Source: Candidatus Obscuribacterales bacterium
Lineage (GTDB): Bacteria; Cyanobacteriota; Vampirovibrionia; Obscuribacterales; Obscuribacteraceae
Assembly (NCBI GenBank): GCA_965228855.1
Contig: CBDDIJ010000002.1
Location: 704,001 to 768,000 of the forward strand
DNA length: 64,000 bases
Reading direction: 5' to 3'
How positions within the stretch are numbered: position 1 is the first letter of the stretch; the number at the start of each line of letters is the position of its first letter. Positions 1,285 through 63,739 of this stretch are shown here, one piece after another. The notes beneath the pieces are model-generated. The model was not told where the DNA came from. It saw nothing but the letters and a program-made list of their open reading frames with translations, and ran no database searches. Position numbers and translations under genes: made by a program.

Positions 1285-1890
1285 ATGGCGAACACACGCA
1301 AGAAAAAGAATCCTAACCAAGCGGGTATCAACCTGCTCTTCGCCCTGGGCTCCAGTCTCGCCCTGGCTCTGATTTTGGGACCACTGCTGTTCTCTGACAA
1401 GAGCACCGTGGGCACCCCTGTCATGTCCACCAACGGTTCGATGATTTCCGACACCATCGGTCGCCTCTCTTCGGCGGACTCGTCCAGCCAGAGGATCAGC
1501 GCCGCGCGCTGGCTCTCGACCCAGGCGTCCGCCAATCCGGAAAGCGTAATTCGGTCGCTCGGCGACTCACTTACGAATGATCCGGACCCGGTCGTCAGAG
1601 CGCAAGCAGCTTCGTCGCTCGGCACTCTCGCGCGGACCGCCCGCGAGAAGCCCACTTCGAATGCATCGCAGGAAAAGCTGATCGCTGAAGTCCTTCAGCG
1701 TCAGTACAGCAAGGAAGCGAGCGACTCCGTTCGCCGCTGTATCATCGGCGCCGCCGCCGAGCTCGATATCGACGACGCCAACGGTCTCGTCGAAAAGGGC
1801 ATCTCGGACAATGATCCCTCTGTGAAGGAAGAAGCACTGCGCGCCCGCGTCGAACGGGAGCAGCGAGCTCAGCTGAAGAAGCTGGGTTAA
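1285..1890 (+). CDS. Membrane-anchored HEAT-repeat protein
   Basis: ATG after AAGGA; N-terminal hydrophobic helix; HEAT-like motifs DPDPVVRAQAASSLG, DSVRRCIIGAA, DNDPSVKEEAL. Confidence 0.8.
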   Translation: MANTRKKKNPNQAGINLLFALGSSLALALILGPLLFSDKSTVGTPVMSTNGSMISDTIGRLSSADSSSQRISAARWLSTQASANPESVIRSLGDSLTNDPDPVVRAQAASSLGTLARTAREKPTSNASQEKLIAEVLQRQYSKEASDSVRRCIIGAAAELDIDDANGLVEKGISDNDPSVKEEALRARVEREQRAQLKKLG

Positions 1891-1978
1891 CGGACCACAA
1901 GCTTCTTGCGGAGACCGCAGCAATTTAGGCTGCGGAAGACTTACTCGCAGTGAACTCAGAAATCTAAGAGGTACGAAG

Positions 1979-2194
1979 ATGACCTGTAACTTTTGCCAGA
2001 AGATGCCCCTTCCGGCCAGCGCCCGTGCGGGCAATTGCTCCAGCTGCTCTGCCAAGACGCCGACGACCGCTCACACTCTCTGCACGACCTGCGCCAAGGC
2101 GCAGTCGCGCTGCAACCGTTGCGGTCGCAGCATGACTGCCAACCCCATGCTGCAGAACGCGTGCGACACCGACAGCTGCGCCTGCATCTTCTAA
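1979..2194 (+). CDS. Small Cys-rich zinc-binding protein (CRIPT-like Cys spacing)
   Basis: RBS GAGG; 71 aa with four CxxC pairs plus a C-terminal C-x4-CxC; followed by a terminator. Confidence 0.8.
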   Translation: MTCNFCQKMPLPASARAGNCSSCSAKTPTTAHTLCTTCAKAQSRCNRCGRSMTANPMLQNACDTDSCACIF

Positions 2195-2259
2195 GCTGAG
2201 CCGGTACTGCCGAGATAGGTAGTCTGGCACCAACAGTCCATCTTCATGCAGAATATCCA

Positions 2260-2315
2260 GGCCGCGTGGCGGATGACGGGGCACCGACCCCTCATCCAGC
2301 CACGCGCCTCTTTCC
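2260..2315 (+). terminator. Intrinsic terminator
   Basis: Stem GCGTGGC-GGATGA...TCATCC-GCCACGC followed by CTCTTTC. Confidence 0.6.
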
Positions 2316-2324
2316 CCGGATCGC

Positions 2325-2749
2325 CTACTATATCCCGGCGTATTAGCAAAATCGAGCAAACCCTGATGCGGTGTTGACTAAGAGCGATAATGCCTACGTT
2401 AGTCTTCACAAAACGCGGGCTTTTGGCTACGCTGCATTGCCGAAATTTGGAGAATCCGTCTATGCACCATAGCCAAGCGGCAGGAAAATTACGAGGTATA
2501 GCCCCAAAGGTCCCATCATTGCTACGTTTCAAGGATAAGGCTTATACTGTCTTTTCTAGTAGCAAAATCAGCGACAGGAAAATTACGAGGTTTAACCCAA
2601 GACACCCATCATTGCTAAGCTTCAGGGACGAAGCTTGTACTGTCTTTTCTAGTAGCAAAATCAGCGGCAGGAAAATTACGAGGTTTAACCCCAAGACACC
2701 CATCATTGCTAAGCTTCAGGGACGAAGCTTGTACTGTCTTTCCTAGTAG
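2325..2749 (+). repeat. Dispersed tripartite element, copy 1 (long arm, core 2423-2476, short arm x3)
   Basis: CTACTATA at 2325; 54-bp dyad core; 93-94-bp tandem units ending CTAGTAG at 2562, 2655 and 2749. Confidence 0.9.
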
Positions 2750-2767
2750 CAGATCGAGAAAGAACGA

Positions 2768-2794
2768 ACCTGGCGGGAGAGTCTCCCGCCAGGT
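2768..2794 (-). terminator. Terminator of sigma factor gene
   Basis: Perfect inverted repeat ACCTGGCGGGAGA-G-TCTCCCGCCAGGT just past the stop codon. Confidence 0.7.
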
Positions 2795-2805
2795 CAGAGA
2801 AATCA

Positions 2806-3639
2806 TCAGCGAACCGCCTGAACACCGGCGACGCGGCCGAGCTTCTGCAGCGCCTTCGCCTCGATCTGGCGGATGCGTTCGCGCGTGAGCTTGAACTGCT
2901 GAGCCAGGTCTTCGAGCGTCTGCGGGTCACCGTCGAGACCGAAGCGGCCGGAGACGATGATGCGCTCGCGCTCGTTCAGCACATCGAGAGACGCCCGAAT
3001 CGCCTTGGCGGTGTCGTCGGACTCGAGACGCTCATGGAAACGCTCGAACGAGCCGTCTTCCATGAGATCCCCAAGTTCCGTCTCACCACTCTCGCCGACG
3101 CGAGTGTTGAGCGACACCTCAATGAGCGCATACTCGGAAAGCTCCCGGATGTCCTTGACGCTCACCTTCATGAGCGCGGCCAGACGTTCCTCCGTCGGCG
3201 CTTCCTGGCTGTCGGCAAGCACCCGGAGCGCCTTCTTCAGACCCGCCAGCAGCTTGCGCTTCGTCGCAGGAATGCGAACGGTCGAGCTGTTGTCGCACGC
3301 ATAGTCCTTGATCGCAGCGCGGACCCAGAACCAGGCGTAGGTCGAGAAGCGAGTGCCGGCGGACAGGTCGAACTTCTCCGCGGCGCGAAGCAGTCCGAGA
3401 TTGCCCTCCTGAATCAGGTCGTCGAGCGGCACGCCGTAGCCCAGAAACTTGCGCGCAACCGGCACCACCATCTTCAGGTGAGCGGTGACGAGCTTGTCGC
3501 GTGCACGAGCGCCGGCGGCACCGCCAGACTGCATACGCGTGACCAACTCCTGCTCCTCTTCGCGGGCAAGAAGCGGGGCGGCGTATGCGCTCCGGAGATA
3601 GCCGTCGAGGTACGACGAAAACGGGTCATTCATAGCCAC
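2806..3639 (-). CDS. Sigma-70 family factor (RpoD/RpoH-like, regions 1.2-4, no region 1.1)
   Basis: DDLIQEGNLGLLRAAEKFD, RFSTYA.W, TRERIRQIEAKALQKL. Confidence 0.95.
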   Translation of the reverse strand: MAMNDPFSSYLDGYLRSAYAAPLLAREEEQELVTRMQSGGAAGARARDKLVTAHLKMVVPVARKFLGYGVPLDDLIQEGNLGLLRAAEKFDLSAGTRFSTYAWFWVRAAIKDYACDNSSTVRIPATKRKLLAGLKKALRVLADSQEAPTEERLAALMKVSVKDIRELSEYALIEVSLNTRVGESGETELGDLMEDGSFERFHERLESDDTAKAIRASLDVLNERERIIVSGRFGLDGDPQTLEDLAQQFKLTRERIRQIEAKALQKLGRVAGVQAVR

Positions 3640-5876: not shown

Positions 5877-6326
5877 CTACTATATTCAAGCGTATTCGCA
5901 AATCCCGGCAAACGCTGACGAAACATGGCTTTTGGACCTACTCACCCGGTCGCCTCGTTCCAAAATCAGCGCTTCGTAACTACTACTATATCCCATCGTA
6001 TTCGCAAATCCCAGCAGATCTAGGCTACATATGACTTTTGGACCTGCACACCCCGTAGCCTCGTTCCAAAATCAGCGATTTGGCTACGCTGGAATGACGG
6101 ATCTGGCGAAAAGTGGCAATCGTACGTAGCCAAATCCAGATCAGGTCAGAGTACCAGATACCCAAAACCCCTGCAGGAAGCCTGCCTTGAGCATAAGGAT
6201 CTCACGACACCTTATAATAGCAAGGATACAGCGTAGCCAAATCCAGATCGAGCCGAGCGCCAGATACCTTAAACCCCTGCGGTGAGCCTGTCTTGAGCAT
6301 AGAGGTATCACGATATTTTATAGTAA
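5877..6326 (+). repeat. Dispersed tripartite element, copy 2 (long arm x2, core 6080-6133, short arm x2)
   Basis: CTACTATA at 5877 and 5983; dyad core; boxes TATAATAG ending 6220 and TATAGTAA ending 6326. Confidence 0.9.
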
Positions 6327-6340
6327 CAAACTTGGGGAGA

Positions 6341-6368
6341 CAGAGGGTTGGACGGTGCCAACCCTCTG
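6341..6368 (-). terminator. Terminator-like hairpin
   Basis: CAGAGGGTTGG-N6-CCAACCCTCTG directly after the stop at 6381. Confidence 0.65.
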
Positions 6369-6380
6369 AGCAAGCAGGTT

Positions 6381-7358
6381 CTAGTTGCCGCCGAGATTCT
6401 TCTGGAGGAAGTTCTGCATCGCAGCCTCGTCGGCGAAGCCGTCAAGTTTGTCGATGACCTTTCCGTCCTTCACGACCGCGATGGCGGGACACTCCTTCGA
6501 GCCCAGCCAGGCGCAGGCGTTGGGCGCCTTGTCCTTCTGGAGGCGAACGAAGCGTGCCTTGTTCGAAAACGTCCCCGCCAGCTTTTCGTAAACCGGAATT
6601 TCCGTGGCACAGTTGACGCATCCACCGGAAACCAGCACAACGACGGTTCCACACTGGCTGCCGACGGTGAGCGGGAAGTCCGAGTCATCGACGACGGTGA
6701 CACCATCGGCAGTGCTCGCCACCTGATGCCGCGTGTCCGTGCTCACCGACTGAACCTCACTGGACGTCATCGCCATGTGATGATGACTGTGTCCGGCGAA
6801 CGCCGCAGGCCACACTGTCATGATCAGCATGACCAGCGACATCATGAAGTGCGCGCCGTCCTGTCCAAAAGAAAGCCACGAGGGCTTCTTGAAGTCGAGA
6901 CTGAGCCGGTAGACGTAGTACGAACCGAACCAGGTCCAGTAGGCGGCGAAGGCGAGCGTCACCAGCCAGTGCTGGATCGGCTGCGCGAACATCCAGTACA
7001 TGCCGAACAGCATGGCGGCGTGCGCGAAGTCGTACCACTGCTTGTTGTACGCGAGCTTGCGACCATAGGTGAAAGCGCGCACCAGATACCAGAGCGTGCC
7101 GATTGTGAACAGCGAGGTCCACACGAACACCGGCACCGGCAGCCACGCAGGCGTGAGGCACGCGGACATGCCGAGCAGACAGGCACCGTGCCAGAATTCG
7201 TTTTCGCCGTCGTAGTAGCCGTTGGCCGTCCGCAGATAGCCGGGGCTCACGAGACGAAACAGATAGAAGAGAGTGCCGCCGAAGAACAACAGCGACAAAG
7301 CGACAGAGACCCAGTCGAAACTCATCGATTGAGTCATCATGTGGTGGTCATGATGCAT
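6381..7358 (-). CDS. His/Met-rich multi-pass membrane protein (DUF5134-like) fused to a thioredoxin domain
   Basis: RBS GGAGA; MHHDHHMM start; TM helices with H..M motifs; C-terminal CVNC thioredoxin fold. Confidence 0.8.
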   Translation of the reverse strand: MHHDHHMMTQSMSFDWVSVALSLLFFGGTLFYLFRLVSPGYLRTANGYYDGENEFWHGACLLGMSACLTPAWLPVPVFVWTSLFTIGTLWYLVRAFTYGRKLAYNKQWYDFAHAAMLFGMYWMFAQPIQHWLVTLAFAAYWTWFGSYYVYRLSLDFKKPSWLSFGQDGAHFMMSLVMLIMTVWPAAFAGHSHHHMAMTSSEVQSVSTDTRHQVASTADGVTVVDDSDFPLTVGSQCGTVVVLVSGGCVNCATEIPVYEKLAGTFSNKARFVRLQKDKAPNACAWLGSKECPAIAVVKDGKVIDKLDGFADEAAMQNFLQKNLGGN

Positions 7359-12607: not shown

Positions 12608-12712
12608 CTACTACGCCAAAAGCTAGCCGGGAAGCTGTTTTAAACACCCTGAATCGCGTAGATCTTCGAAACTCGGATACGTTCGTCAAGGGTTTACTCA
12701 TGCATCTAGTAA
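12608..12712. repeat. Possible core-less remnant of the tripartite element
   Basis: CTACTAC at 12608 and TCTAGTAA ending 12712; right arm keeps GTA at +16-18; adjacent to the 3' hairpin of the 12790 gene. Confidence 0.4.
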
Positions 12713-12789
12713 AACAAGGCAACCGACGAATCGGCAGTATCCATAAGGGATACCACCGACTCGCCTGGTTGGGTGAAAACCAATTTCCG

Positions 12790-17709: not shown

Positions 17710-18197
17710 CTACTATCTCTTGTCACACCCTTGTGGTTTCGAAACGGTCTGCCAGCAAGACTCTCCCCACCTACCCCACCGCATCGAAGACTTTTGTCTA
17801 CGAGCCATTGCCGGAATTTCAAAAATGCGTCATACCCACAGCGACAAGCATGGACTAAACCGCTTTCGACTACCTCGAAGACCTCTACTATCTCTTGTCG
17901 CGCCCTTGTGGTTTCGAAACGGTCTGCCAGCAAGACTCTCGTCACCTTGCCCCATTGCTTCGAAACTTTTGTCTACGAGCCGTTGCCGGATTTCGGCAAA
18001 TGCGTCATACCCACAGCGACAAGGCAAAAAGATCCTCTACTATCTCTTGTCGCGCCCTTATGGTTTCGAAACGGTCTGCCAGCAAGACTCTCCCCACCTA
18101 CCCCACCGCATCGAAGACTTTTGTCTACGAGCCATTGCCGGAATTCGACAAATGCGTCATACCCACAGCGACAAGCATGGACTAAACCGCTTTCGAC
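17710..18197 (-). repeat. Dispersed tripartite element, copy 3 (short arm + core, tandem x3)
   Basis: CTACTATC at 17710, 17885 and 18037, each 84 bp before a core at 17794, 17969 and 18121. Confidence 0.9.
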
Positions 18198-18391: not shown

Positions 18392-19165
18392 CTACTTCGC
18401 GAAATCGGTGACGCCGGACTTCTTCAGAACTTCCGAGTCGATGAAGAAATTGCCGTTCGTGTCCTTCGCCGGCTGGGTCAGGATCCAGTAGGCCGCGTCG
18501 GCAACGATTGCCGGCAAGCGGCATCCCTTCACGGTGTCGTCACCGCCCAGCAAATTGCGAACCGCAGCGGTCGCGATGGCTGTTTCGGGCCAAAGAGAGT
18601 TGACTCCAACACCCTTGTCGGCAAACTCTTCGGCCATGCCCAGCGTGCACATGCTCATGCCGTACTTCGCCATGGTGTACGCGACGTGGTTCTTGAACCA
18701 CTTCTTGTCCATGTTGAGCGGCGGCGACATGTTGAGGATGTGCGGATTAGTCGCCTTCAGCAAATGCGGCAACGCCAGGCGAGACATAAGGAATGTCCCG
18801 CCGACGTTGATTTCATGCATCAGCCGATAACGCTTCAGGTCGGTTGCGAGCGTGCCCGTCAAGCTGATCGCCGAGGCGTTGTTGACGAGAACATCGATGC
18901 CACCAAAGTCGGTGACAACTTTCGTGATCGCAGCTGCGACCTGGTCTTCGAAACGGATGTCGCACTGAATCGCCAGAGCTTGGCCACCAGCCTTTTTCAC
19001 ATCATCTGCCGCGGTGTGAATCGTACCGGGCAGCTTCGGATTGGCATCGGCAGTCTTGGCGAGTATGGCGACTTTGGCACCGTCTTGAGCGGCGCGAACA
19101 GCGATGGCGTGACCGATTCCGCGGGACGCTCCCGTGATAACGATCACTTTGTCTTTCAGAGACAT
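18392..19165 (-). CDS. SDR family oxidoreductase (HSDL2-like); probably extends to 18344 past an amber codon
   Basis: TGASRGIG, NNAS, YTMAKYGMS, NSLWP. Confidence 0.92.
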   Translation of the reverse strand: MSLKDKVIVITGASRGIGHAIAVRAAQDGAKVAILAKTADANPKLPGTIHTAADDVKKAGGQALAIQCDIRFEDQVAAAITKVVTDFGGIDVLVNNASAISLTGTLATDLKRYRLMHEINVGGTFLMSRLALPHLLKATNPHILNMSPPLNMDKKWFKNHVAYTMAKYGMSMCTLGMAEEFADKGVGVNSLWPETAIATAAVRNLLGGDDTVKGCRLPAIVADAAYWILTQPAKDTNGNFFIDSEVLKKSGVTDFAK

Positions 19166-20934: not shown

Positions 20935-20985
20935 AAGACCTCCTACTCCTGTTTACAGGAAAGTTAGAGAGACCGGCAGCCCGCC

Positions 20986-45902: not shown

Positions 45903-45912
45903 TGGGGAAAAA

Positions 45913-45986: not shown

Positions 45987-46399
45987 ATGCATGTGCTCGA
46001 GAACTGCAGTATAGCACAACAGTTCGGCGGAGCTTGAACGTGCTCTGCAATGCTTGTTAACAATTGCGCTCGAAATGCCCACACCGTCCGGATTTTGCAA
46101 AACGGAGGTCGGTTCAGTTTTAAACTTGAGAACTCAACCTTGAGAACCGAGTTTAAAACTAAACCGATTTCGACTTGACTGAAGTCGGTTTGGTTTCGAT
46201 TCGAAACTGTTAAATCTGAGAATCGTCTTCGGGTGTGAACCGGAGACCTGGTACGGTTTTGCTTTCGGATTGAAACCGCCGAGCGACTCGCTCGGTTTTT
46301 TTCTGTTGAGAGTTGGTCTGGTTTCCAACCGGCTCTCACTGTTTCGATAACCGGAGAACGGCACCGCAAGCCGTTCCCACCAACACAAGGAATATCACC

Positions 46400-46837
46400 A
46401 TGTTCCCATACGTCATGGCCGGTCTCGCTCTGCTCGCAGGCGGGATCATCTTCGTTGCTTTGCGCCGGGATCTCGGCAAGAAAACGGCGCCCAAGGGCAA
46501 GTGCGATCGCCCGGTGAAGGAGATCTCCGCGCTCGAATTGCGCGACCTCGTCACCAGCTCCGCCGACCCCGTCGTCGTCATGTTCCACTCGCCCAACTGC
46601 CCGGCCTGCCACACCCAGAAGCCCAACTTCCAGGAAGCGGCCGACGCGCACGAGGGCAACGCCCGTTTCGTCACCATCAACGTCCTGGACAACAAGTCCA
46701 CTGCGCGCCGCCTCGGCATCACGCGCATCCCGACCACGATGGTGTTCGTCAGGGACGACGTCAGCCCGCTGGCCAGCCGCGTCGGCGTGTTCGACCCGGC
46801 CGAAGTCAACGCGTTCATCAAGAACGCCGGCAAGTAG
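46400..46837 (+). CDS. Membrane-anchored thioredoxin
   Basis: N-terminal TM; CPAC; IPT cis-Pro motif. Confidence 0.9.
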   Translation: MFPYVMAGLALLAGGIIFVALRRDLGKKTAPKGKCDRPVKEISALELRDLVTSSADPVVVMFHSPNCPACHTQKPNFQEAADAHEGNARFVTINVLDNKSTARRLGITRIPTTMVFVRDDVSPLASRVGVFDPAEVNAFIKNAGK

Positions 46838-47027
46838 TTTTCCAGGTCATGCCTCGTGTCGCGGCGGAAAAACTCGTTGAAAACGAGTGCCGCCGCGGCG
46901 CGAGCGCATGCTCCTGTCACCGCGTCCGAGCTGCGTGCAAATAGCTGACACCACATCCGGTGCAGCCGCGCAACTCATTTTCCGGAGCGAAGTGACGCTG
47001 CAGAGCAGCCGCTAGCCGCTCCCACTC

Positions 47028-49202
47028 ATGAAAAGGACATTAGCCATGTTTTGGTTCTGGACAGTCCTGACCCTGGCGACTGGCTTACTCGCCGGCCTCT
47101 TCGGCTGGCACATCGGAGGCCACGCCGCCGCCCTCGCCTTCACTCTGGGCGGAATTCTCGCCGTAATCGGCGCACATGATTTGAGAAAGCACCGTCACAC
47201 GCTCCTGGCGGGGACGGCTTTCTTCGCGGTTCTCGGCTGGTATTTCGGCGGCTTCGCCTTTGCCGTGCTAACCGCACTTCTCGTATTCCCCGTGCAGCTG
47301 GCTATCTGGGAGTTTTCTCTCAAGAAGTCTGTGGCATTGCCGATGCTCCTCCTGGGCTCCGGCACGGCATGGTGGCTGGGGTGGCACCTCGACGGTTCTA
47401 TGACTGGGCTCGTGGCAGCGGCGCTGACCTTCTTCGCGATGGTCGGCATCGAAGACTACTTCCTGCAACGCAAGCACTCCGTGCGCCGCAACTTCCCGAT
47501 TCTGGGATGGTGCCGCTACGGTTTCGAACTCATCGGTGATGAGCTCCGCCAGTATTGGTTCATGTCCGATATCGAGGAGAAGCCCTACAACCGTGAGACA
47601 CGGCGGTTTATCTACCGCAGCGCCAAGGGCATCAACAACAACCTCGGTTTCGGCTCGAGCCGCGACTACCGCGCCGTGGGCGAGATTCACATCATGCCCA
47701 CCAACTTCCCGGTGAGCGAACGTCGCAACCGCGGCAATCGCCTCGCGCCGCTCGTGATCGGCAAACGGCGCCGCGTCCCCTACGAGTGCCCGTGGCCGAT
47801 CAACATCGCCCACATGAGCTGGGGCGCCCTGTCGGAAGAGGCTGTGATGGCGCTCTCCTCGGGTGCCAAGCTCGCCAACATCCACATGGGCACTGGCGAA
47901 GGCGGACTCACGCCTTTCCACCTCGACGGCGTCGTCCGTCGAGTGCCGTTCAAGCAGATGGCTGCCTACCACTGGCGGTCATTCCTGCATTCCGCCAGTC
48001 TGAAGTTTCTGGCAAAACCGGATATGCCGCAGGGACAGGTTGTTGGCGGCGGCCGGCTGATTCTCGAAATCGGTCCGGCTAAGTTCGGTTTCCGCAAAGC
48101 GCTGAAGGACGCCTTCCGCGGCATCGGCATCGACTTTGCGCCCAACAAGATGCTGGAAGACGACCTGCGCCGGCTGGCGAAGGCGTATTACTTGAACGGT
48201 CTGGATATGGAACTTCTGCGCGAACTCGCCGAGAAAGACGAGCTCGTGGCGCTGGATCTCGACAAGGTCAAGCGCGTGATGGAGAATCCGCAGATCGTGG
48301 GCGGCATGTTGAAACTGGCTCAGGGTGCCAAACCCGGTCAGGGCGGCAAGCTGCCGAAAGAGAAGATCACGCCGACGATTGCGCAATGGCGCGGCGTTCC
48401 GATGGGCAAGGACTGCTACAGCCCCAATGCCTGGGACGAGTTCAACGATGCCGAGACGCTGTTCATCATGATCCGCATGTTGCAGGATTTGACGGGCAAG
48501 CCCTGGGGTATCAAGATCGTCGCCGGTCAGGAAGCGGAAGTGCACAAGATGGCCAAGCTCTACAAGGAGCACAAGGACGGTCCGGACTTCATCGTCATCG
48601 ACGGCGGTGAAGGCGGAACCGGCGCGGCACCTGTGGATCTTGCCGACCATGTCGGTCTGCCGATTCTGCATGCCATTCCTGACGTCGACAACATTTTGCG
48701 CGAGCACGGTGTTCGCGACGAGGTCGTGCTGATCGCTGCCGGTCAGATGGCGAAGGCTTCCGACGTGGCGATCGCGATCGCGCTCGGAGCTGACGCCGTC
48801 GAAATCGGGCGTGCCAACATGATCGCCGAAGGTTGCATCATGGCGAAGCGCTGCCACACCAACCACTGCCCGGTCGGTGTCGCGACCCAGGACCCGCGTC
48901 TGCGGCGAGGTCTCGACCCGGCGGACAAATACGTGAAGGTGGCCAACTACAACATGGTGCTGCAGCGCGGACTGCTCGTCATCCTCAAAGCCGCCGGCGT
49001 GTCGAATCCCTGGGAGCTCACCAGGCACCACCTCAAAGTGGTGACCGGTCCGATGCGCGAAGTCTACATGGATCAGATTCACCCCTATCCAGACGGCTCC
49101 GACGGCAAGCGCAACCCGGTGCTCGGCGCCATTCCCACGGACGATCCGGAGCACAACGACCGCTTCGGTCCCAAACTCATCCAGCTCGAAGTGAAGCACT
49201 AA
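47028..49202 (+). CDS. FMN-binding glutamate synthase family protein with N-terminal TM region (start may be 47046)
   Basis: MSWGALS, TGEGG, KLAQGAKPG.GG.LP, DGGEGGTGAAP, GCIMA..CHTN.CP.GVATQD. Confidence 0.92.
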   Translation: MKRTLAMFWFWTVLTLATGLLAGLFGWHIGGHAAALAFTLGGILAVIGAHDLRKHRHTLLAGTAFFAVLGWYFGGFAFAVLTALLVFPVQLAIWEFSLKKSVALPMLLLGSGTAWWLGWHLDGSMTGLVAAALTFFAMVGIEDYFLQRKHSVRRNFPILGWCRYGFELIGDELRQYWFMSDIEEKPYNRETRRFIYRSAKGINNNLGFGSSRDYRAVGEIHIMPTNFPVSERRNRGNRLAPLVIGKRRRVPYECPWPINIAHMSWGALSEEAVMALSSGAKLANIHMGTGEGGLTPFHLDGVVRRVPFKQMAAYHWRSFLHSASLKFLAKPDMPQGQVVGGGRLILEIGPAKFGFRKALKDAFRGIGIDFAPNKMLEDDLRRLAKAYYLNGLDMELLRELAEKDELVALDLDKVKRVMENPQIVGGMLKLAQGAKPGQGGKLPKEKITPTIAQWRGVPMGKDCYSPNAWDEFNDAETLFIMIRMLQDLTGKPWGIKIVAGQEAEVHKMAKLYKEHKDGPDFIVIDGGEGGTGAAPVDLADHVGLPILHAIPDVDNILREHGVRDEVVLIAAGQMAKASDVAIAIALGADAVEIGRANMIAEGCIMAKRCHTNHCPVGVATQDPRLRRGLDPADKYVKVANYNMVLQRGLLVILKAAGVSNPWELTRHHLKVVTGPMREVYMDQIHPYPDGSDGKRNPVLGAIPTDDPEHNDRFGPKLIQLEVKH

Positions 49203-49444
49203 GAGCTGATGGTGGACGGAACAGATCGCACCGCGGGCGGTGCCGATTAAACGGTAACGACCGCTCAAGGTCAACGCGCAATCGTGCGCAATTCACAACA
49301 ACAAAGGCCAGGGACGGGAGTGCAGGTGATACCACTTGCCTCCCGCCCCTCGCGCCGCACAGCGTGACCGGTTTCAACCTAACGCTGCTGTAATTCTTCG
49401 GTTCGAGGGCTCACGCTCTCTCGCCTGAGATGGAAGGTAAATGT

Positions 49445-50137
49445 ATGAACTTCGACCTGAAACTCCTTCTCAAAGTCGGAGTCGGGCTCGCGCTGGCAAT
49501 CACCGCGTATCTCGTCGCCGGCTACTTTCTTAAGGGCATGATCAAACCGGAGGACTTGCTCAACTTCGTCAAGGACTCCGGTCCGTGGGCACCAGTGGTT
49601 TTTATCGGGCTGTTTATCTTCAGTCCCGGAATTCCCGCCTCGGCGCTCGCCATCGCCAGTGGTGCCATCTTCGGTCTGTGGACAGGCTATCTGTACACGA
49701 TGATCGGCGCTCTGCTCGCGATGATCCCGCCTTTCTGGTTCTCCCGCCTGCTCGGTCGAAAGCTGTTGAACAGACTGCTCTCGATGGTCGGCGGGTCAAT
49801 CGAAGGTAATGTCGAGAAGTTTCAACAGAATGTGGAAACGCACGGTTGGCGCTACATAGCGTTCACCCGGCTGATCCCGCTGTTTCCGTTCTCGCTGCTC
49901 AACCTCGTGTTCGGGCTCACGCGAATCGGCTTCTGGACTTATCTTGTCACAAGTTTCTTCTTCGTGATGCCGGCACTGTTCGCGTTCGTCTACATCGGCT
50001 ACGCCGGTGCAAACGCCGCAGACGGTGGCTCCGGATGGCTGTACGTCAAGGTCTTCGCGGCCCTGGGCAGCCTCATCTTGCTCGCGCTTCTGCCTCAGAT
50101 TGTCCGGTTCGTGAAAAACCGGAGAGGCCGAAAGTAA
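49445..50137 (+). CDS. TVP38/TMEM64 (DedA/VTT) family membrane protein
   Basis: SGAIFG, RLIPLFPFSLLN..FG. Confidence 0.9.
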   Translation: MNFDLKLLLKVGVGLALAITAYLVAGYFLKGMIKPEDLLNFVKDSGPWAPVVFIGLFIFSPGIPASALAIASGAIFGLWTGYLYTMIGALLAMIPPFWFSRLLGRKLLNRLLSMVGGSIEGNVEKFQQNVETHGWRYIAFTRLIPLFPFSLLNLVFGLTRIGFWTYLVTSFFFVMPALFAFVYIGYAGANAADGGSGWLYVKVFAALGSLILLALLPQIVRFVKNRRGRK

Positions 50138-50195
50138 GACCTTAAGCGACTCTCGCCTGGTCTAAAACAAGAATCGCAAACCAAGGACCAATTAG

Positions 50196-50720
50196 ATGAA
50201 CCTCAAAAACGCCTTCACAGGCAATCGCGTCGCGACCCATTACGGTCTCGTCGACGGCGACAAGTGGTCGGCTTCCGGCACGCTGGGACTTCTGTACCAG
50301 ACCCTGGCCGTACACTTCGCCGCGTTCGTCTGTCTGTTTACCGGCACCAACGCCATCACGGCGGCCGGACTTCCCGTGCAGGCGCTGCTCTCAGTTGCCT
50401 GCGTGCTCGGCTTCGTCGTGGGCGGCAAACTCCTCATCGGTCTCTGCGATGCTGGGTGCAAACGCCTGGTTGCAGCCATACCCTACAACTGGCTGCGCGG
50501 CGTCGCCACCCTGATCCTGATGCTGGCCTCGCTTGCCGTCGTCATGGCCTGGCCGGCGGCGTTCCTGTTCCTCCTCGCAAAAGCTGCCCCTTCCGTGGTC
50601 AGCTTTACCGGCTGGAACAGCGCTCTCATGGCAGGCTTCGGCGTTCTCTGCGCCGACGGCATCCTGGGCGGACTGACCGGAGTTTCGCTCCTGTCCGGCA
50701 AGCGTTCCAAGATCAACTAG
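50196..50720 (+). CDS. Hypothetical multi-pass membrane protein
   Basis: About 4 hydrophobic helices; RBS AAGGA. Confidence 0.75.
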   Translation: MNLKNAFTGNRVATHYGLVDGDKWSASGTLGLLYQTLAVHFAAFVCLFTGTNAITAAGLPVQALLSVACVLGFVVGGKLLIGLCDAGCKRLVAAIPYNWLRGVATLILMLASLAVVMAWPAAFLFLLAKAAPSVVSFTGWNSALMAGFGVLCADGILGGLTGVSLLSGKRSKIN

Positions 50721-50759
50721 AGTTTCGCTGCCGACGCGGCGAAACGTGAAATAGAAACT

Positions 50760-50802
50760 GCCCGGCGCGTCTCGTGAAAACGTGTATCGCGCCGGGCTTC
50801 TC
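50760..50802 (+). terminator. Terminator-like hairpin
   Basis: GCCCGGCGCG...CGCGCCGGGC followed by TTCTC. Confidence 0.6.
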
Positions 50803-50812: not shown

Positions 50813-51047
50813 CTACTATATACCGAGGTAGTACACAGCCTCCCGAATACCAGTCACAGCAATGTTTTCAGGATTTCTTATTTATAGTCCGCCCTGAAAT
50901 CGGTTGCTTTGGCTATCGTACGATGACGGTTTTGCCGAAATGCGTCATTGTGGCGTAGACAAAATCACCAAGCGGTTTACGTCTGATACCCAAATCACCT
51001 CGCCTGAAACCATTTCGCGCAAAACGTATTCCTAAGTTCTATAGTAG
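50813..51047 (+). repeat. Dispersed element, copy 6 (complete single unit, 235 bp; core 50909-50962)
   Basis: CTACTATA, 96 bp to the core start, core, 85 bp to the end of TATAGTAG. Confidence 0.92.
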
Positions 51048-57382: not shown

Positions 57383-58222
57383 ATGAACGACAAAACACCG
57401 TTCGCCCAACGCTTCGGACAGATTCAAGCGAATCTGGAAGAGGCTATAGGCGACAAACAGACTGCGTGGCTCGCCGCGCTGTCGATCGTGAGCGGCATGC
57501 CGCTGCTCATCGATTCGAAGACGTCCCAGGAGAAGCTCGCACGCGCCGTCGCCAGCGTGATAAGCGGCAGCTGCGAATCGCTCGGTTTCGGCTTTCAGAC
57601 GCTGAACTCGAACGTTCTCTACATGGGCAACCTGGACAACTGCTACTGTCTGCCCGCTGGCTGTCTGCGACTCGCCAGTCAAGCCGTTGGCAAGCCTGCG
57701 AACAAGAATGACAGCATCGTCGTTCTCATCGGTCACATCAGCCCACCGCACTCGCGCAAGTCGATGGCGTCGGCTGGACTGATCGACCAGTTCGCCTGCT
57801 TCTCGTCCGTCGACTTCGATGGCGAGCGCGTCTCCAGGGCTCCGGCTGCTGTGACGCTCGATGATGTTGCGGACATGCGCAAGTATGTCCGTGACAACGT
57901 CGTCCTCGACGACGAGGCGGTGCAGTTCATCCTCCGCATCAACAAGGCGGCAACACCGAGTCCGTCGGACGAAATTCCCGACGAGCTCAACGAATACGTC
58001 GCCGACGGTCCTGCACCGCGAACCTGGGTTCACCTGGCGGAACTGTCCCGTGTGGTCGCTGCTTCGCAGGGTCGCACGGTCGTCAGTCGCTCGGATGTTC
58101 TCGCGTTCGTCGAACCGGTGCTGTCGCATCGGTACCGCAACGACACCGTCTCGCCGTACAACCGCTTCGACCTGGGACGCCGCATCGCCGGCGCCGTCGT
58201 CTCGAAGCTCAAGGCCGCCTAG
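57383..58222 (+). CDS. Degenerate MoxR-like AAA+ protein
   Basis: MoxR lid motif GPAPR...GR..V...DV.....PVL.HR; Walker A absent. Confidence 0.75.
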   Translation: MNDKTPFAQRFGQIQANLEEAIGDKQTAWLAALSIVSGMPLLIDSKTSQEKLARAVASVISGSCESLGFGFQTLNSNVLYMGNLDNCYCLPAGCLRLASQAVGKPANKNDSIVVLIGHISPPHSRKSMASAGLIDQFACFSSVDFDGERVSRAPAAVTLDDVADMRKYVRDNVVLDDEAVQFILRINKAATPSPSDEIPDELNEYVADGPAPRTWVHLAELSRVVAASQGRTVVSRSDVLAFVEPVLSHRYRNDTVSPYNRFDLGRRIAGAVVSKLKAA

Positions 58223-58258
58223 CCAGTTGGCGACGCGGCAAACAGAAAGGAGTTCATC

Positions 58259-58588
58259 ATGAACAGCGTTTCTTTCATGTACCTGCTGCTGGCCGTCGTC
58301 GCCATCGTCAACGTCGTCTCGGCGTTGCTCTGGATTCGTCTGCTGATGCTCGTTCGAGCCGCCGACCAGATCCTGAGCTTCACCACCGCGTCGATGTACA
58401 CTCGCTACCTGTTCGGGCAGGTCATGTCCGGCAAGTGGTTTCGCACGCCGACCTCGCTTGTGCTCGGCAATCCCAAGCGCGACCCGGTCATCCGCAAGGT
58501 CATCGGTTCCGCTCAGTACCAGACCGTGCAGTTCCTGGCGTCGTTCGTCAAGGACCTGCCTGTCAACGTCGTGCCGTACTTCGTCTAA
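58259..58588 (+). CDS. Small membrane protein
   Basis: RBS AAGGAG; N-terminal TM. Confidence 0.75.
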   Translation: MNSVSFMYLLLAVVAIVNVVSALLWIRLLMLVRAADQILSFTTASMYTRYLFGQVMSGKWFRTPTSLVLGNPKRDPVIRKVIGSAQYQTVQFLASFVKDLPVNVVPYFV

Positions 58589-58675
58589 CAAGGCACGCGC
58601 CTCCAGGCTGAGGCAGCATCACCTGCTGCTTCGGCCGGAGCTCTGTTTTAACTCAGAACATCGAGGAGAAAGTAC

Positions 58676-58897
58676 ATGCTCACACTCGCATCACACAATC
58701 CCGGCGCCAGCCAGCCGTTCCGCACTGGTCGCGAACGCAGGGAACGCCGCGCCTCGCTCGGTCTCGTCTGCCACGATGGTGGTCGGGCGCCCGCGCGCGA
58801 GGAACTCTCGGTCGCCGAACAGTACCGTCTGGCTGCCGAGCGGCGCGCTAAAACCGCCAGCGACGAGTACGTCCAGGCACCCTGCGACGTCGAGTAA
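58676..58897 (+). CDS. Small hypothetical protein
   Basis: RBS GAGGAG; GC3 bias. Confidence 0.6.
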   Translation: MLTLASHNPGASQPFRTGRERRERRASLGLVCHDGGRAPAREELSVAEQYRLAAERRAKTASDEYVQAPCDVE

Positions 58898-58957
58898 TGC
58901 CGCGCTGAAAACGCGGACCATTCACCAACAACACCAGCTATCTCGAAGGTGATTACC

Positions 58958-59272
58958 ATGGCTACTCTCTCTGTCGTCTCGAACAACAGCGCCACCATGC
59001 CCGCTCCGCTCCTCACGCGCCGCGAGCTGCGCGACCGTCGCGAGCGCCTGGGCATCGTCGTGCACAGCGGCGGTCGCATGCTCCCCGTGCCGATGTCCGT
59101 GTTCGAACCGCAGCACACGGTCGACGCGCACGGGAAGCGGCATGCTGTCACCCCCGTCTCCGAGTTCGTCAGTCCCGGTCTCCGTCCCGTCGGCCCCGCC
59201 GGCAGCGCGGCTCCGCGCGTGCACGTCCCCATGACGGCGCACGACAACTACATCATCGACCGCGAAGAGTAA
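58958..59272 (+). CDS. Small hypothetical protein
   Basis: RBS AAGGTG; GC3 bias. Confidence 0.65.
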   Translation: MATLSVVSNNSATMPAPLLTRRELRDRRERLGIVVHSGGRMLPVPMSVFEPQHTVDAHGKRHAVTPVSEFVSPGLRPVGPAGSAAPRVHVPMTAHDNYIIDREE

Positions 59273-59401
59273 TTCTCTTTCGCGCAAGAGTGAAACCGGC
59301 TACCGAGCCGTTTTGGCGGACGGCTCGGGTTCTTTTCTTCATCGCTGTTTCAACAGCTCAACTAGAACCACCGATGGTATCAGTCGGTGAGGAGGATTGA
59401 C

Positions 59402-60613
59402 ATGTTCACGAAAAACAAACTCGCCCTCGTGGCATTCATCGGCGTTGTGGTCCTGGCAATCGCCGCGGCCGCCGTCATCGCGTTCACCCCGAAGCCGGAC
59501 CTGACAAGCGACTTGTTTCCCGAGCGCTTCGGCAACGAACTCCAGCTTCCGCAGAAATCGGGAAGCATTCGCTCAGTCGAGATGTGGTCCGACCAGCGCA
59601 CTCCCAAGTTCGGTGTCGAGGACCACGCCGACGGCACTACCACCCACTACCGCTACCGTCCCGACGGCACGCTCGCGAGCGCGACGCTCTACGCCGCCGC
59701 CGATCAGTCCGGAAATCGCGCGGTGATTCGCGACTCGACGATGGCTGCCGACGGTTTCACATACGTCAAGGACATCACATACTTCGCGGACGGCTCGGTC
59801 TGGAAGGACTTCGTGCTTGCCGACGATGGAACGACGCATAGGATGTTCTACCATCCCAACGGCGTCCTCGCCAAGGATCAGGTGATGGAGTACGAGTGGC
59901 GAGTCTGGAAGCTCATGAGCGAAAAGGCTTTCTACGACGACGGCAAGAAAGCTCGCGTCTTCCTGATCACCCGCGGCAAATCGCTGGAAGACACCATATA
60001 CGGTGCCGGCGAAACACTGCAGGCTCATAAGAAGCACGACTACGTCGCGCGCACTTACACCGAAACCTGGTATCACGACGACGGCAAAACGCCTCTTCGC
60101 CTGGTCGAGCAAGACTCCGAAGGCACGAAGGCAACAGTGATGCGCATGGACGGCTCCGTGGCTGAAACCTACAGTTGGTGGGGCGAAGTGCAAAAGTCCG
60201 GAATCACGGTCAACATCTTCGACCGCGCCGGGAGCAAGCGCTACGAACAAACCTACTGGTGGGGCTACCAAACCAACAAGCTCGAGCTTCGCTCCGTCGA
60301 GGTCTTCGACCGCAACGGCAAACTGACGAACTTCGTCATGTACTACACCAGCGGTCCTGAAGCCGGCAAGGTTGAAGCAGACGCGACCTTCAGTTCCGAC
60401 CAGGGCTGGAGCGGTCCCCACATCCGGCGCGAATACCGCAAGGATGGAACGCTCGCAGTCGCGAAGCAAAACAAAAACACGAGCACCACGATTTCCGAGG
60501 AGAAGTTCACCGCGGAGCAGAACATACTCCCGACCATCAACTCGGAATGGGCGGTCTGGCATTCAGTCGAAACGCCACCGCAGATGGTGACCTACGTCCC
60601 ACCCAGAGACTGA
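59402..60613 (+). CDS. Secreted/anchored beta-hairpin repeat protein, paralog 4
   Basis: RBS GAGGAG; N-terminal TM; YRPDG, FADG, YDDG, YRKDG repeats. Confidence 0.85.
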   Translation: MFTKNKLALVAFIGVVVLAIAAAAVIAFTPKPDLTSDLFPERFGNELQLPQKSGSIRSVEMWSDQRTPKFGVEDHADGTTTHYRYRPDGTLASATLYAAADQSGNRAVIRDSTMAADGFTYVKDITYFADGSVWKDFVLADDGTTHRMFYHPNGVLAKDQVMEYEWRVWKLMSEKAFYDDGKKARVFLITRGKSLEDTIYGAGETLQAHKKHDYVARTYTETWYHDDGKTPLRLVEQDSEGTKATVMRMDGSVAETYSWWGEVQKSGITVNIFDRAGSKRYEQTYWWGYQTNKLELRSVEVFDRNGKLTNFVMYYTSGPEAGKVEADATFSSDQGWSGPHIRREYRKDGTLAVAKQNKNTSTTISEEKFTAEQNILPTINSEWAVWHSVETPPQMVTYVPPRD

Positions 60614-60716: not shown

Positions 60717-60942
60717 CTACTATATTCTTTCGTTACTCCGATATCCCAAAAGGCTACGTGGAAGCGGCTTTAAGCCGATGCCTCCCCACTCCTCCCTTCT
60801 TTCCTACTATATTCTTTCGTTACTTCAACATCCCAAAAGACTACATGGAAGAGGCTTTGCGCCGATGTCTTCCATCAAGGTCGCGTGGTTGTCTATGAGG
60901 CGTTGACAGTTTTCACAAAAAGCGGCAATGCCTGATAGACAA
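60717..60942 (-). repeat. Dispersed element, copy 7 (short arm x2 + core 60889-60942)
   Basis: CTACTATATTCTTTCGTTACT at 60717 and 60804; core 85 bp after the second box. Confidence 0.9.
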
Positions 60943-61136: not shown

Positions 61137-61245
61137 CCCGTCATGCGTGGGGCGAGAGTTTCAAACTTGCGCGTCCCGTCATGTGTTGGGCGAGAGTTTC
61201 AAACTGCGCGTCCCATCATGCGGGGTTTCACACTTGCGCGTCCCG
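61137..61245. repeat. About 38-bp tandem repeat, x3 (third copy shortened)
   Basis: Unit CCCGTCATG-GT-GGGCGAGAGTTTCAAAC(T)TGCGCGT. Confidence 0.8.
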
Positions 61246-61676
61246 CCTTGCGCAGCTCTCGCCAACCCGATTGACCTTAAAAGGCGCTAAAAAGCAAAGT
61301 CCGGTTATCTCGAAGGAAAGCCCGATATTCCAAGGCCGCAGTCCCGCGAGCAACTCTGGACTACACTGCAGTTTCTCTTATCTTGACAATACTGAACTGG
61401 TCTTAACTTGTGATCTTGCAGCCTGAACAAACTAAAGTGAACTCAGCTTCTGACATCAACTTCACCGGTTTCTCACACCCACAGTCTTCCGCATCAACCC
61501 CGAATTTCCGCAGCAGTCTGTGCTCCGGAGAAGACCGTCAGCAGCGAGCGAAGGGCATTCCTAACCCATAATCCAGCAGAACGGATCATGAACGGATTGC
61601 CCGGATGGAACACGCGAAGCGCCTGAGTACAAGCGCGTGTTCTGCAACCCAAACTCAGGCAGATTGGATACACCTA

Positions 61677-62714
61677 ATGAAAAACACCATCGCAACCATC
61701 GAAGCCTCGAACTTCGATGAAACTGTGAAGGCAGAGCTCAAGGCGCTCGTCGAGATCACCAAGCTGGCCAAGGACACCGACTCCTCCAGCCAGGCGGCGA
61801 TGCACAAGTACAAAGCCGGCACCAACGAACGCCAGTACGCACGCCGTATCGCGGAGAAGATGACGAGCGAAAAGCGCACCGAGATGCAAGTTCATCAGTT
61901 CGCCTATCGCAACGCCTTCGCCAACGCCGTCTTCAGCGTGCATCAGGCTCGCAAGACGCTCGTCAAGGTCGGCGCCGACATCCGTGCTCTGGTCGCACGT
62001 CTCGAACCCGAGGCCAAGGACCCGAGCAATCGCAACGCTCTGATCGCGGTCATGGGCATCGCGTACGAAACCGACGGCATCAACCCTGACGCAGTTCTCA
62101 GCGAGCTGGACAACGTCAGCGACATCTCGCGCGAGCGCCTGCTGGAAGCTGTTCGCACCATCTTCGCGCACAAGAAAGCCGAGTCCGGCATGATGGCGGC
62201 GACGTCCTTCAGCTCCTACGAATTGCTGATCACCGACCCGACGGCCGAGCAGCAGGCTGTGCAAGACGCTCTCCAGCCCGCAATCGCCGTGCGCCAGGAG
62301 TTCGAAGATCACTGGAACTTCTACAGCTTCGCCAAAGCACGCTTCAACGTGCCGCAGTTCACGCAGCGCATGGAGCAGGCCGTTGCCGAAGGCGACGAAG
62401 CCAAGATCGAGAGCATTCGCGCCAGCCGCCGTGACGCCGAGGGAGCGGTCTTCGTCGCCGCTTCCAACTGGGTCAACGCTTACCCGCGGATGGTGAAGAT
62501 TCGCGAGAATCTCAAAGCCGCCATCCATCGCGCGGCGGACACAATCACGGAAACCAATTCGCTCGAATCGACCATCGCCATGAGCCATCTGATCGGCTGC
62601 TGGAAGTGGCACAGCGAATTGACCGGCTACATCGAGGGCAAGTTCCGCAAGGCGGACCTTGCGAGCGTCCTCGCCGGCCTCGACTTTGACACGAAGGAAT
62701 ACCTGCGCGGTTGA
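61677..62714 (+). CDS. Hypothetical alpha-helical protein
   Basis: Long ORF with strong GC3 bias; no motif recognised. Confidence 0.8.
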   Translation: MKNTIATIEASNFDETVKAELKALVEITKLAKDTDSSSQAAMHKYKAGTNERQYARRIAEKMTSEKRTEMQVHQFAYRNAFANAVFSVHQARKTLVKVGADIRALVARLEPEAKDPSNRNALIAVMGIAYETDGINPDAVLSELDNVSDISRERLLEAVRTIFAHKKAESGMMAATSFSSYELLITDPTAEQQAVQDALQPAIAVRQEFEDHWNFYSFAKARFNVPQFTQRMEQAVAEGDEAKIESIRASRRDAEGAVFVAASNWVNAYPRMVKIRENLKAAIHRAADTITETNSLESTIAMSHLIGCWKWHSELTGYIEGKFRKADLASVLAGLDFDTKEYLRG

Positions 62715-62795
62715 CGCATACGGTTTGCGGCGAGAGGGAGCATGCTCCTTCTCGCCTGCAGACTGCCTCTTCACACGAACGCATGAGCACATCCA

Positions 62796-63521
62796 ATGCG
62801 ATCAATAGTTCCCGAAACTGCTCGCAACATCGTTGCCATGGGCGGAGCCTTCGGCTACGACAACGATGCGGGTAAACGGTTTTTGAAACTGATGTTGCGG
62901 CTGACCGGCAAGCGCAAACCGCGCATTATGTTCGTCGGCACAGCATCAGGCGATCACGACTATGGGCGCGTCTGGTTCTACAGCCAGCTCGCCGGTCGAA
63001 ACTGCTACCCCTCGGTTCTGAAGCTCTTCGAGCCAGTTCCGAGCGACCTGACTTCACTCGTGCTTTCTCAGGATGCGATCTTTGTCGGCGGAGGCAACAG
63101 CACGGCGCTTCTCGGCGTCTGGCGCGCCTACGGCTTCGACAAAGCTCTCACCACCGCCTGGGAACATGGTGTCGTCTGTGGTGGCGCAAGCGCGGGTGGG
63201 ATTTGCTGGTTCGAACAAGGCATCTCTGCAAGTTCCTACACCGACAAGGTGGTGGCACTCCAGGGACTCGGTCTTGCGCACGGCAGTTTCAACCCTCACT
63301 ACGACACCGATCCGAAACGCCGTCCGGCTTACCACAAGCTCATCGAAACGGGCATCGCCCTCGATGGCATCGGCGTCGACGAAACCGCAGCCGTTCACAT
63401 CACCGGACGCGACAACGTTCGGGCTCTGAACGGCGACGGAAAATCGGCTTGCCATCGCGTTTTCCTCGATGGCGGCAAGGCAGTGGAAACGACGCTACCG
63501 GTCTCGGTCGTCCGTCGATGA
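62796..63521 (+). CDS. Peptidase E (S51) family protein
   Basis: TASGD, VGGGNS, GASAG, PHYD. Confidence 0.92.
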   Translation: MRSIVPETARNIVAMGGAFGYDNDAGKRFLKLMLRLTGKRKPRIMFVGTASGDHDYGRVWFYSQLAGRNCYPSVLKLFEPVPSDLTSLVLSQDAIFVGGGNSTALLGVWRAYGFDKALTTAWEHGVVCGGASAGGICWFEQGISASSYTDKVVALQGLGLAHGSFNPHYDTDPKRRPAYHKLIETGIALDGIGVDETAAVHITGRDNVRALNGDGKSACHRVFLDGGKAVETTLPVSVVRR

Positions 63522-63525
63522 AACA

Positions 63526-63580
63526 GAAGCGAGGCCAGCAAAGCGGTTTAAACCCGCCGAGCCGCCTCGCTTCCCCTTTT
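63526..63580 (+). terminator. Intrinsic terminator
   Basis: GAAGCGAGGC...GCCTCGCTTC followed by CCCTTTT. Confidence 0.7.
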
Positions 63581-63590
63581 CCCAATATAC

Positions 63591-63739
63591 CTACTATATT
63601 CTTTCGTATACATCAAGCCCCAAAACAGCGCCCCTGTAACAGTCTTCGACACCAGCCGTTTCGCCAACCCGCACAATATACGGGTTTGGCTACGAGAGAA
63701 TGACAGAATTTGCCAAAAGCGTCATTCTCTCATAGACAA
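63591..63739 (+). repeat. Dispersed element, copy 8 (long arm + core 63686-63739)
   Basis: CTACTATA 95 bp before TTGGCTA...TGACA-N14-CGTCA...TAGACAA. Confidence 0.9.

Follow-up and report, generated by a model that had tools for sequence, protein, structure and literature searches.

What kind of DNA site lies at the ends of the gene blocks in a 64,000-nucleotide stretch of a Candidatus Obscuribacterales genome, and what does it do to those blocks? The window, as this whole stretch is called here, spans positions 704001-768000 of contig C2 (CBDDIJ010000002.1) of genome G000 (GCA_965228855.1; 8.2 Mb, six contigs). Obscuribacterales are non-photosynthetic relatives of cyanobacteria. Blocks of genes with a high GC content at third codon positions (GC3) are transcribed toward a symmetric box of 19 bp, consensus TACTA-N7-(T/C)(A/C)GTA, about 14 nt beyond the operon terminator, and a phased arm and a four-box palindrome follow. 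A preliminary description of the window took the box for the insertion junction of acquired transcription units. Our analysis suggests instead that the box is a protein-bound operon end-cap which doubles as a rearrangement hot spot, a tentative reading to which we give somewhat less than an even chance. The pattern is real, genome-wide, family-wide and apparently undescribed; no published description of the box system was found in the literature searched, most subscription papers lying outside its coverage.

Genes were called with our own codon-model script, start sites and small open reading frames (ORFs) being approximate. Genes with GC3 ≥ 0.70 were assigned to the GC3-rich class, and the region around oriC is referred to as the zone. 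The GC-skew switch on C2 coincides with dnaA at C2:793 kb.

In the window, CTACTAK was counted 18 times against an expectation of 2.5, and the four-box palindrome 10 times against an expectation of 0. The whole genome of G000 holds about 214-226 palindromes, of which 176/214 lie inside C2:66 kb-1.15 Mb, and 181/214 are flanked by a box on one or both sides, compared with 1.3% at random positions. The orientation noticed in the window recurs genome-wide, where 151 of the 203 outermost boxes are faced by a gene 3' end. A box ends 105/168 GC3-rich blocks and 28/216 GC3-poor blocks. In a test blind to the palindrome, stem and box were found at 88 of the 143 GC3-rich block ends having a stem, in 2/96 internal gaps, at 9/87 GC3-poor zone ends and at 1/292 ends outside the zone (every third gene sampled). 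Strong stems are present in 73/146 internal gaps, compared with 12/62 and 19/150 in comparison sets, whereas TACTA is present in 2/146, compared with 9/62 and 13/150. The distance between terminator and box, previously given as 8-20 bp, is indeed fixed, with a mode of 14 nt, most values at 13-21 nt and a sharp lower edge.

The seven boxes quoted in the preliminary description lie at their reported positions, each with a stem-loop just upstream. Eight of the ten blocks said to end at an element have a strong facing box with palindrome, but 12790-14453 has a weak lone box at 12712 and 18392-24241 has no facing box. The features of the window are as follows:

1285..2194, plus strand: GC3-rich block, HEAT-repeat protein and small Cys-rich ORF (GC3 0.73 and 0.86), ortholog in G001 and G006
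2261..2308, plus strand: terminator-like stem-loop, read from the sequence, about 16 nt ahead of the box
2325..2475, plus strand: unit of box (2325-2343), phased arm and four-box palindrome (2424-2475)
2476..2749, minus strand: opposite arm, three tandem box copies of 93-94 bp with 5' ends at 2562, 2655 and 2749
2768..3633, minus strand: sigma-70 gene (2806-3633, GC3 0.80) and stem-loop (about 2768-2795)
5877..6326: double-ended element, boxes 5877 and 5983 (plus), palindrome 6081-6132, boxes 6220 and 6326 (minus)
6339..7325, minus strand: membrane-thioredoxin fusion gene (6381-7325, GC3 0.82) and stem-loop (6339-6370)
12694..12759, minus strand: lone family-type box (12694-12712) without palindrome, 18 nt past a stem-loop (12731-12759)
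17710..18173, plus strand: three tandem box-arm-palindrome units beside the MocR start, facing no terminator
18392..24241, minus strand: GC3-rich block of SDR, two unknowns, metallophosphoesterase and CNNM, without facing box, boxed in G002
26330..27796, plus strand: beta-CASP nuclease gene (GC3 0.78) and stem-loop (27762-27796)
27818..27967, plus strand: box, arm and palindrome (27916-27967), arm and linker different in metagenome locus L078
28504..28774, minus strand: palindrome (28504-28555) and two boxes, 28774 and 28641, each followed by an arm
28788..39415, minus strand: GC3-rich block of M4 peptidase, FadE and four unknowns (GC3 0.73-0.93), stem-loop 28788-28823
40394..50799, plus strand: GC3-rich run of M1 peptidase, thioredoxin-like, glutamate-synthase-like, VTT and unknown genes, stem-loop 50758-50799
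50813..51047: double-ended element, box 50813 (plus), palindrome 50910-50961, box 51047 (minus)
57383..60613, plus strand: GC3-rich block of five ORFs (GC3 0.74-0.89)
60717..60941, plus strand: truncated unit (box 60717), full unit (box 60804) and palindrome (60890-60941)
61677..63571, plus strand: GC3-rich block of an unknown and an S51 peptidase, stem-loop 63537-63571
63591..63738, plus strand: box, arm and palindrome (63687-63738)

Run X4 contains a copy-number variant of the arm at 2476..2749 that differs by one unit. The run at 40394..50799 is broken by an M1 paralog (GC3 0.63) and a tRNA-Asp gene (45912-45987, minus strand); this GC3-poorer paralog beside the tRNA gene is located elsewhere in G002 and G006. 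The stronger GC3 bias reported for the blocks is found in most of them (0.69-0.93, compared with 0.52-0.63 in intervening genes), but not at 12790-14453, where the genes have values of 0.58 and 0.62 and the G002 ortholog, which has a box, 0.73. That loss of the box lowers GC3, an idea taken from this block, was rejected given the lone box there. The leaders of GC3-rich blocks are long, as had been claimed (median 636 vs 333 bp), but not AT-richer (GC 0.489 vs 0.479), and no leader-specific motif was found. A 26-bp inverted repeat lies 5' of the first block (window 423-489), and a family-type box-like site is at 171.

Between box and palindrome, two groups of distances about 11 bp apart and phased A-tracts were found, and the 14-bp centre of the palindrome is constant. 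Pairing of its left and right spacers averages 3.81/7, compared with 2.87/7 after shuffling, and is complete in 5/99; no covariation between its box variants was found. The palindrome resembles a pair of protein-binding sites at fixed spacing and not an attC hairpin. The 7-bp box spacers are of 144 kinds among 238, and there is no match between the two ends of 57 double-ended elements. No second site or motif was found at block 5' ends; a palindrome lies upstream of 41/373 GC3-rich gene starts, mostly as the end of the preceding gene. Around the skew switch at C3:1.556 Mb no box is present, and dif itself was not found at the terminus. Neither a GC3 gradient running from the box nor a strand-biased base change in non-coding gaps was detected.

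What moves, and where do the blocks change? G000 and G007 are collinear over 400 kb, and most arms are inherited in place between them. The synteny check for empty sites proposed in the preliminary description returned one among 139 anchored sites in G000. The copied unit, seen in G000 and G007, comprises the box, a phased arm of 140-170 bp and the four-box palindrome. Related arm pairs at distant loci number 17, of which nine were aligned; in 9/9, homology sets in no more than 7 bp from where the box begins and continues to the far end of the palindrome, in one pair across both arms, and tandem and truncated copies all restart at the box. No duplicated gene block ending at a box was found. 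Since paralogous units are homologous from box to palindrome and no box-ended block is duplicated, the mobile piece is placed on the non-gene side; judged by these alignments, it starts at the box and extends away from the genes. Arms with < 60% identity between strains were seen in 9/78 boxed pairs, with the stem and the first 5-9 nt kept and the linker altered. The 16 nt upstream of the box were kept in 0/6 cases when the arm was replaced, compared with 31/45 otherwise (six cases only).

The genes change at the same end. In the blocks of relatives, a G000 ortholog is missing for 25/48 of the 3'-most genes, 13/48 of the 5'-most genes and 13/64 of the middle genes, and the neighbour is retained across 12/59 block 3' ends compared with 32/70 5' ends. 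G007 and G002 carry one extra gene 3' of 50196-50720. In G001 and G004 the 3' end of one block consists of two genes (GC3 0.73-0.77) whose G000 matches (62-68%) lie outside the zone with GC3 0.60-0.62, which may reflect relocation in either direction. A weaker form of capture survives: the blocks appear to gain or lose genes mainly at the box end, with a possible 3'-polar gene gain. The box is a real junction, with a polar content change at its end, but not the scar of whole new units. Arrays of 72-73 bp palindrome-only repeats were seen in G007, at L007 (C3:64199-65800) and at L005-L006 (C3:39549), one of which brackets a strain-specific PLD-HTH gene on both sides.

GC3 is bimodal only around the origin: values ≥ 0.70 are found in 329/715 zone genes compared with 15/4653 elsewhere, a count that omits C2:1-77 kb, C1, C4 and C6. 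Of the class, 316 proteins were scanned, 86 of them as G007 orthologs, against Pfam at 1e-5 or 1e-12, and 41 in PHROGs. Named proteins are mostly peptidases, glycosidases, lipases and enzymes of beta-oxidation and the tricarboxylic acid (TCA) cycle; further members are transporters, MoxR clusters, S1, Pth and tyrosyl-tRNA synthetase (TyrRS). The class, a few hundred genes of a digestive and scavenging kind, has no leading-strand bias. Deep GC3-poor paralogs exist for 80/329 class genes. The only TyrRS in the gene calls (C2:318832-320064) is GC3-rich and has no GC3-poor paralog in the gene set, and the names of its homologs indicate no outside donor. With this enzyme in the class and orthologs syntenic in relatives, the term 'accessory' was given up. 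An integrated jumbo phage or giant element was likewise rejected, hallmark phage genes being missing: no terminase, capsid, portal, polymerase or recombinase was found among the 316 proteins (18 class proteins were not submitted and many have no family). Neither stronger conservation nor more frequent exchange of the class relative to other genes was supported (identity 68% vs 73%; without ortholog 62/192 vs 80/184).

Some members of the zone stand out individually. An aconitase-malate dehydrogenase fusion (C2:949022-952510, one ORF of 1162 amino acids, also in G007) adjoins a second citrate synthase. Four proteins of 210 amino acids (C2:936211, 937052, 271058, 272399) match a phage 'virion structural protein' family; they adjoin a protein of 465 amino acids with a phage match and are present in 25/61 genomes of the order. 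Within the GC3-rich class, M17 (PepA-type) aminopeptidases number three full copies and two with the M17 N-terminal domain alone (G007 locus L007, region of L008:17088-18398; G000:C2:553266, 1010043, 1060062). PepA is an accessory factor at cer/psi, and the M17 proteins are a candidate link to it.

How old are blocks and box? The blocks of the window keep both synteny and high GC3 in G001, G002, G005 and G006, and partly so in G012; block 28788..39415 is syntenic in all of the first four. In the congener DNA covered, 117 of the 130 GC3-rich genes that have an ortholog in G000 correspond to a zone gene that is itself GC3-rich. In G065, from another genus with a background of 0.35-0.45, the class is again restricted to the zone, and class agreement of zone orthologs with G000 is 29/34 and 60/61. 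Class GC3 stays about 0.2-0.35 higher across genera of differing base composition. The G000 palindrome is present in only 3/41 genomes. Relatives without it have TACTA-N7-(T/C)(A/C)GTA beyond the terminators of the same genes (13/33 vs 3/30 and 16/69 vs 5/76 in two comparisons). In two genomes that are single contigs, box matches cluster around dnaA: 77/79 within 2.32-3.06 Mb in G065 (dnaA at 2.83 Mb) and 20/20 within 1.42-3.03 Mb in G081 (dnaA at 2.58 Mb). A stricter box pattern is enriched in 3/14 family genomes and at background level in other families. G012 has an identical layout with a different palindrome in 22 copies, and no third palindrome type was found in the stretches read of G001, G002, G004 and G005. 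Taken together, these comparisons indicate that the box is old and family-wide, and that the sequence of arm and palindrome is lineage-specific. A free partner element was considered and rejected, the palindrome pattern having 0 matches in viral contigs and, among genome and metagenome contigs, matches in this lineage only. One contig assigned to an Acidobacteria assembly (L043, L044) matches the G000 zone at 84-97% and is probably misbinned.

The box lies past the last terminator of a second operon class restricted to the origin region, and there it would act as an end-cap. A dimeric protein would bind TACTA-N7-TAGTA, internal stem-loops would be read through unless a box follows, and the bound end-cap would block read-through RNA polymerase and concentrate DNA cutting and rejoining. 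New units would be planted directly after another terminator with loss of the old unit, and operons would thereby extend or shrink at the 3' end. Annexed genes would drift toward class codon usage under strong expression, and the phased arm and four-box palindrome would serve for wrapping or for binding a helper, in a form particular to the lineage. A minimum distance that is always kept, and the lack of boxes in block interiors, are as expected of a stop signal; the copied unit and the polar turnover suggest that DNA is rejoined at the box. A site handling transcription or supercoiling at 3' ends, which had been named as an alternative to capture, would fit the fixed spacing and the lack of boxes inside blocks, and forms part of the end-cap reading.

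Several findings weigh against the end-cap. Of the 203 outermost boxes, 52 face a gene 5' end; the box is missing from 55/143 stem-bearing GC3-rich block ends, and 96/390 GC3-rich genes lie outside any boxed run. In G065 a crude count gave a stem at ≤ 32 nt in 10/33 gene-facing box orientations. In most of the 41 family genomes, raw motif counts do not rise above a control with the pattern reversed; the evidence is position, not abundance. The p-values for polarity (0.02, 0.003) are overstated because related genomes sharing blocks were counted separately. Ribosomal-protein genes carry host-type codons, so 'high expression' alone fails to explain the class. As to proteins, the candidate binder described below was not seen in G011, and in G013 and G022 the only copies seen are intact ones in mobile DNA; the search for an antiterminator found a single NusG and no NusG paralog.

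A wider version would make this a family-wide operon-building system, in which operons of an origin-domain programme grow by annexing promoter-distal genes, with a movable protein-bound end-cap setting each stop, perhaps read by a domesticated dead recombinase; we regard it as doubtful. The contents of such a programme would be peptidases, lipases, glycosidases and TCA enzymes, with its own sigma and S1, and in effect it would resemble an inverse, distributed integron over a megabase. Two interleaved gene classes, one restricted to the origin domain and marked by one 3' site, were not found described. A bound end-cap, if true, would be a new way of setting operon ends and building operons, and would suggest that Obscuribacterales, the sister lineage of cyanobacteria and uncultured, have a life stage or feeding programme not recognised so far. 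Both a defined site and candidate proteins are at hand for study in a heterologous host.

Could the box be the core of a distributed recombination platform? The box would then be a tyrosine-recombinase core with a 7-bp overlap, arm and palindrome would be accessory, and promoterless genes would be inserted box-proximally, as in an integron extended at its far end. The inverted arms around 7 bp, the start of unit homology at the box, the 3'-polar turnover and internal stems resembling former ends all agree with this, as does the helical phasing of the accessory palindrome, comparable to the core plus accessory sites of cer/psi (10.64898/2026.02.23.706985) and rst (PMC7157771). Two Xer/TnpS-like genes lie in the zone (C2:369829-370713 and C2:923144-924055) and are kept across the genus. 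However, both carry three altered catalytic positions (R>K, loop Lys missing, H>Q), a group that comprises 23-24 of 98 homologs. Altered copies also occur in G012 and G058, and G016 has a more decayed tandem pair 20 kb from dnaA. Intact TnpS-like sisters are found in mobile DNA near KfrA-domain genes and have their own site, TTGATAC-N6-GTATCAA. For the altered pair, binding of the box is a candidate role, a lead rather than a link; 15 other matches to tyrosine recombinases elsewhere are not tied to the site. The platform is further opposed by the linker upstream of the box, which changes with the arm and puts the crossover outside the spacer, by the diverse spacers unmatched across double-ended elements, by the collinearity of G000 and G007 and by the lack of IntI (TIGR02249), of which there was none at 1e-40 in G000 and none over the cut-off in 9 genomes, control genomes being also negative. 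We consider it unlikely.

The known systems of this kind share parts of the architecture. The four-box palindrome recalls the attC site of integrons (PMC8876359), and integron arrays too vary at one end; there, however, IntI is required, whereas the palindrome here lies outside the block, is poorly paired and does not occur once per gene. Integrons differ also in that the change seen here is at the promoter-distal end, with stem and box rare in internal gaps. The pdif and cer/psi sites share a short inverted core, phased accessory DNA and Xer-like proteins nearby (PMC13141974 and 10.64898/2026.02.23.706985). Where pdif has a XerC arm, a 6-bp spacer and a conserved XerD arm, the spacer of the box measures 7 bp and a TTATGTTAA arm is lacking; the box occurs once per block instead of as two inverted sites, with no copy seen near the C3 skew switch, and the candidate proteins lack catalytic residues. 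One G002 site resembles dif. A core with phased accessory sites in two distance classes about 11 bp apart is the architecture of cer/psi or rst, which differ in the place of the crossover: here it is not within the core spacer, as the linker changes (six cases). With TnpS/TnpT rst (PMC7157771), the box shares a core and a second inverted pair, and the altered zone recombinases are sister to intact TnpS-like proteins. The rst site differs in that boxes are dispersed in hundreds without a transposon and the intact relatives use their own site. The box system departs from the integron, pdif and REP families in a defining feature of each; with the membership tests failing, the likeness to integron or pdif modules proposed earlier was abandoned. 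In behaviour the system comes closest to a BIME-type mosaic located at the ends of operons, and in appearance to a core-plus-accessory site.

Capture by way of RNA, in which reverse transcription would act on terminated transcripts or on RNAs of the unit, with the product joined where transcripts end, is improbable. It would yield truncated head-to-tail units and short new linkers, and truncated copies do restart at the box; breakpoints about 5-9 nt past the stem are where a transcript end is expected. G000 has four reverse transcriptases, of which a retron-like one (C2:944459-945628) has its stop 18 bp before a box and the intron-type one is a separate broken gene on C3. Yet the retron-like neighbour is one among about 200 sites, strand-biased base change is lacking, and neither poly-A nor target duplication was seen. 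Group IIC introns insert after terminators, but no group II intron ends were found at the junction, which reads linker and then CTACTA.

Equally improbable is a selfish REP/BIME-like repeat that prefers the space past strong terminators, with a box lacking host function and a separate GC3 class. In its favour are the tandem and inverted arrays, the lineage-specific palindromes and the IS110 elements, all of whose seven copies (7/7) lie in the palindrome. They are of two kinds at two fixed positions, three near-identical copies (C2:774711, 858572, 1120781) and four (C2:197223, 987926, C5:861234, 1461428), which makes the palindrome the natural target of two IS110 elements. Against it, the bare box is kept after the same class in genera without the palindrome, the lower edge of the spacing is sharp, and empty sites between strains are as rare as given above. 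No Y1 transposase (PF01797) was found (0 matches in a genome 95% complete; control positive in 6/14), and Y2 and serine resolvase families had 0 matches in G000 (the Y2 control also gave none). With REP/BIME and RAYT (PMC2817692), the system shares extragenic palindromic mosaics of more than 100 copies, in tandem or inverted, located after genes and targeted by IS110; the REP hairpin is GTAG-led and served by Y1, here replaced by a rigid four-box palindrome and no Y1. Unlike REP/BIME, the box system belongs to a single gene class and a single chromosome domain, and its conserved box keeps a fixed distance to a terminator.

An organiser of the origin domain, that is, an anchor or compaction site like ram or matS placed at terminators where it avoids polymerase traffic, we find highly unlikely. 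Dozens of palindromic sites within one domain of 0.7-1.6 Mb around dnaA in three genomes would suit it. The box resembles matS in its many palindromic sites confined to one chromosome domain. However, GC3-rich ends carry stem and box far more often than GC3-poor ends of the same zone (88/143 vs 9/87), and the copied arm and the polar turnover are left unexplained. PMC4914108 gives a similar picture for RacA ram, with 25 regions between -412 and +200 kb and many palindromic sites within one chromosome domain; the box differs by its placement at terminators of one class, by the copied arm and by a cognate binder that is only a candidate.

Recent acquisition of whole transcription units inserted at the box, the capture first proposed, is hardly credible: distinct codon usage, the deep GC3-poor paralogs and a few phage-like proteins speak for it, but synteny and class are kept in congeners and other genera, protein identity is 68% compared with 73% for other zone genes, neither a 5' second site nor a duplicated box-ended block was found, contig depth is flat in the single informative run, and the check for excised circles found no such joints in the contigs of runs X1 and X4 (contigs cannot prove absence). 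An ancient origin of the class from a large mobile element may apply.

The class boundaries are not an assembly artefact, since contigs of run X1, possibly the source sample, agree with the first 20 kb without differences over these boundaries and with flat depth. Elsewhere in G000, C2:1-65 kb (66% GC) and the greater part of C4 combine high GC with a codon pattern of their own and are possibly foreign, contamination or mobile DNA; C4 joins about 55 kb at 29% GC to DNA at 65% GC. An array of about 21 tRNA genes lies at C3:724518-727973 of G000, with five more near the terminus (C3:1529761-1530653).

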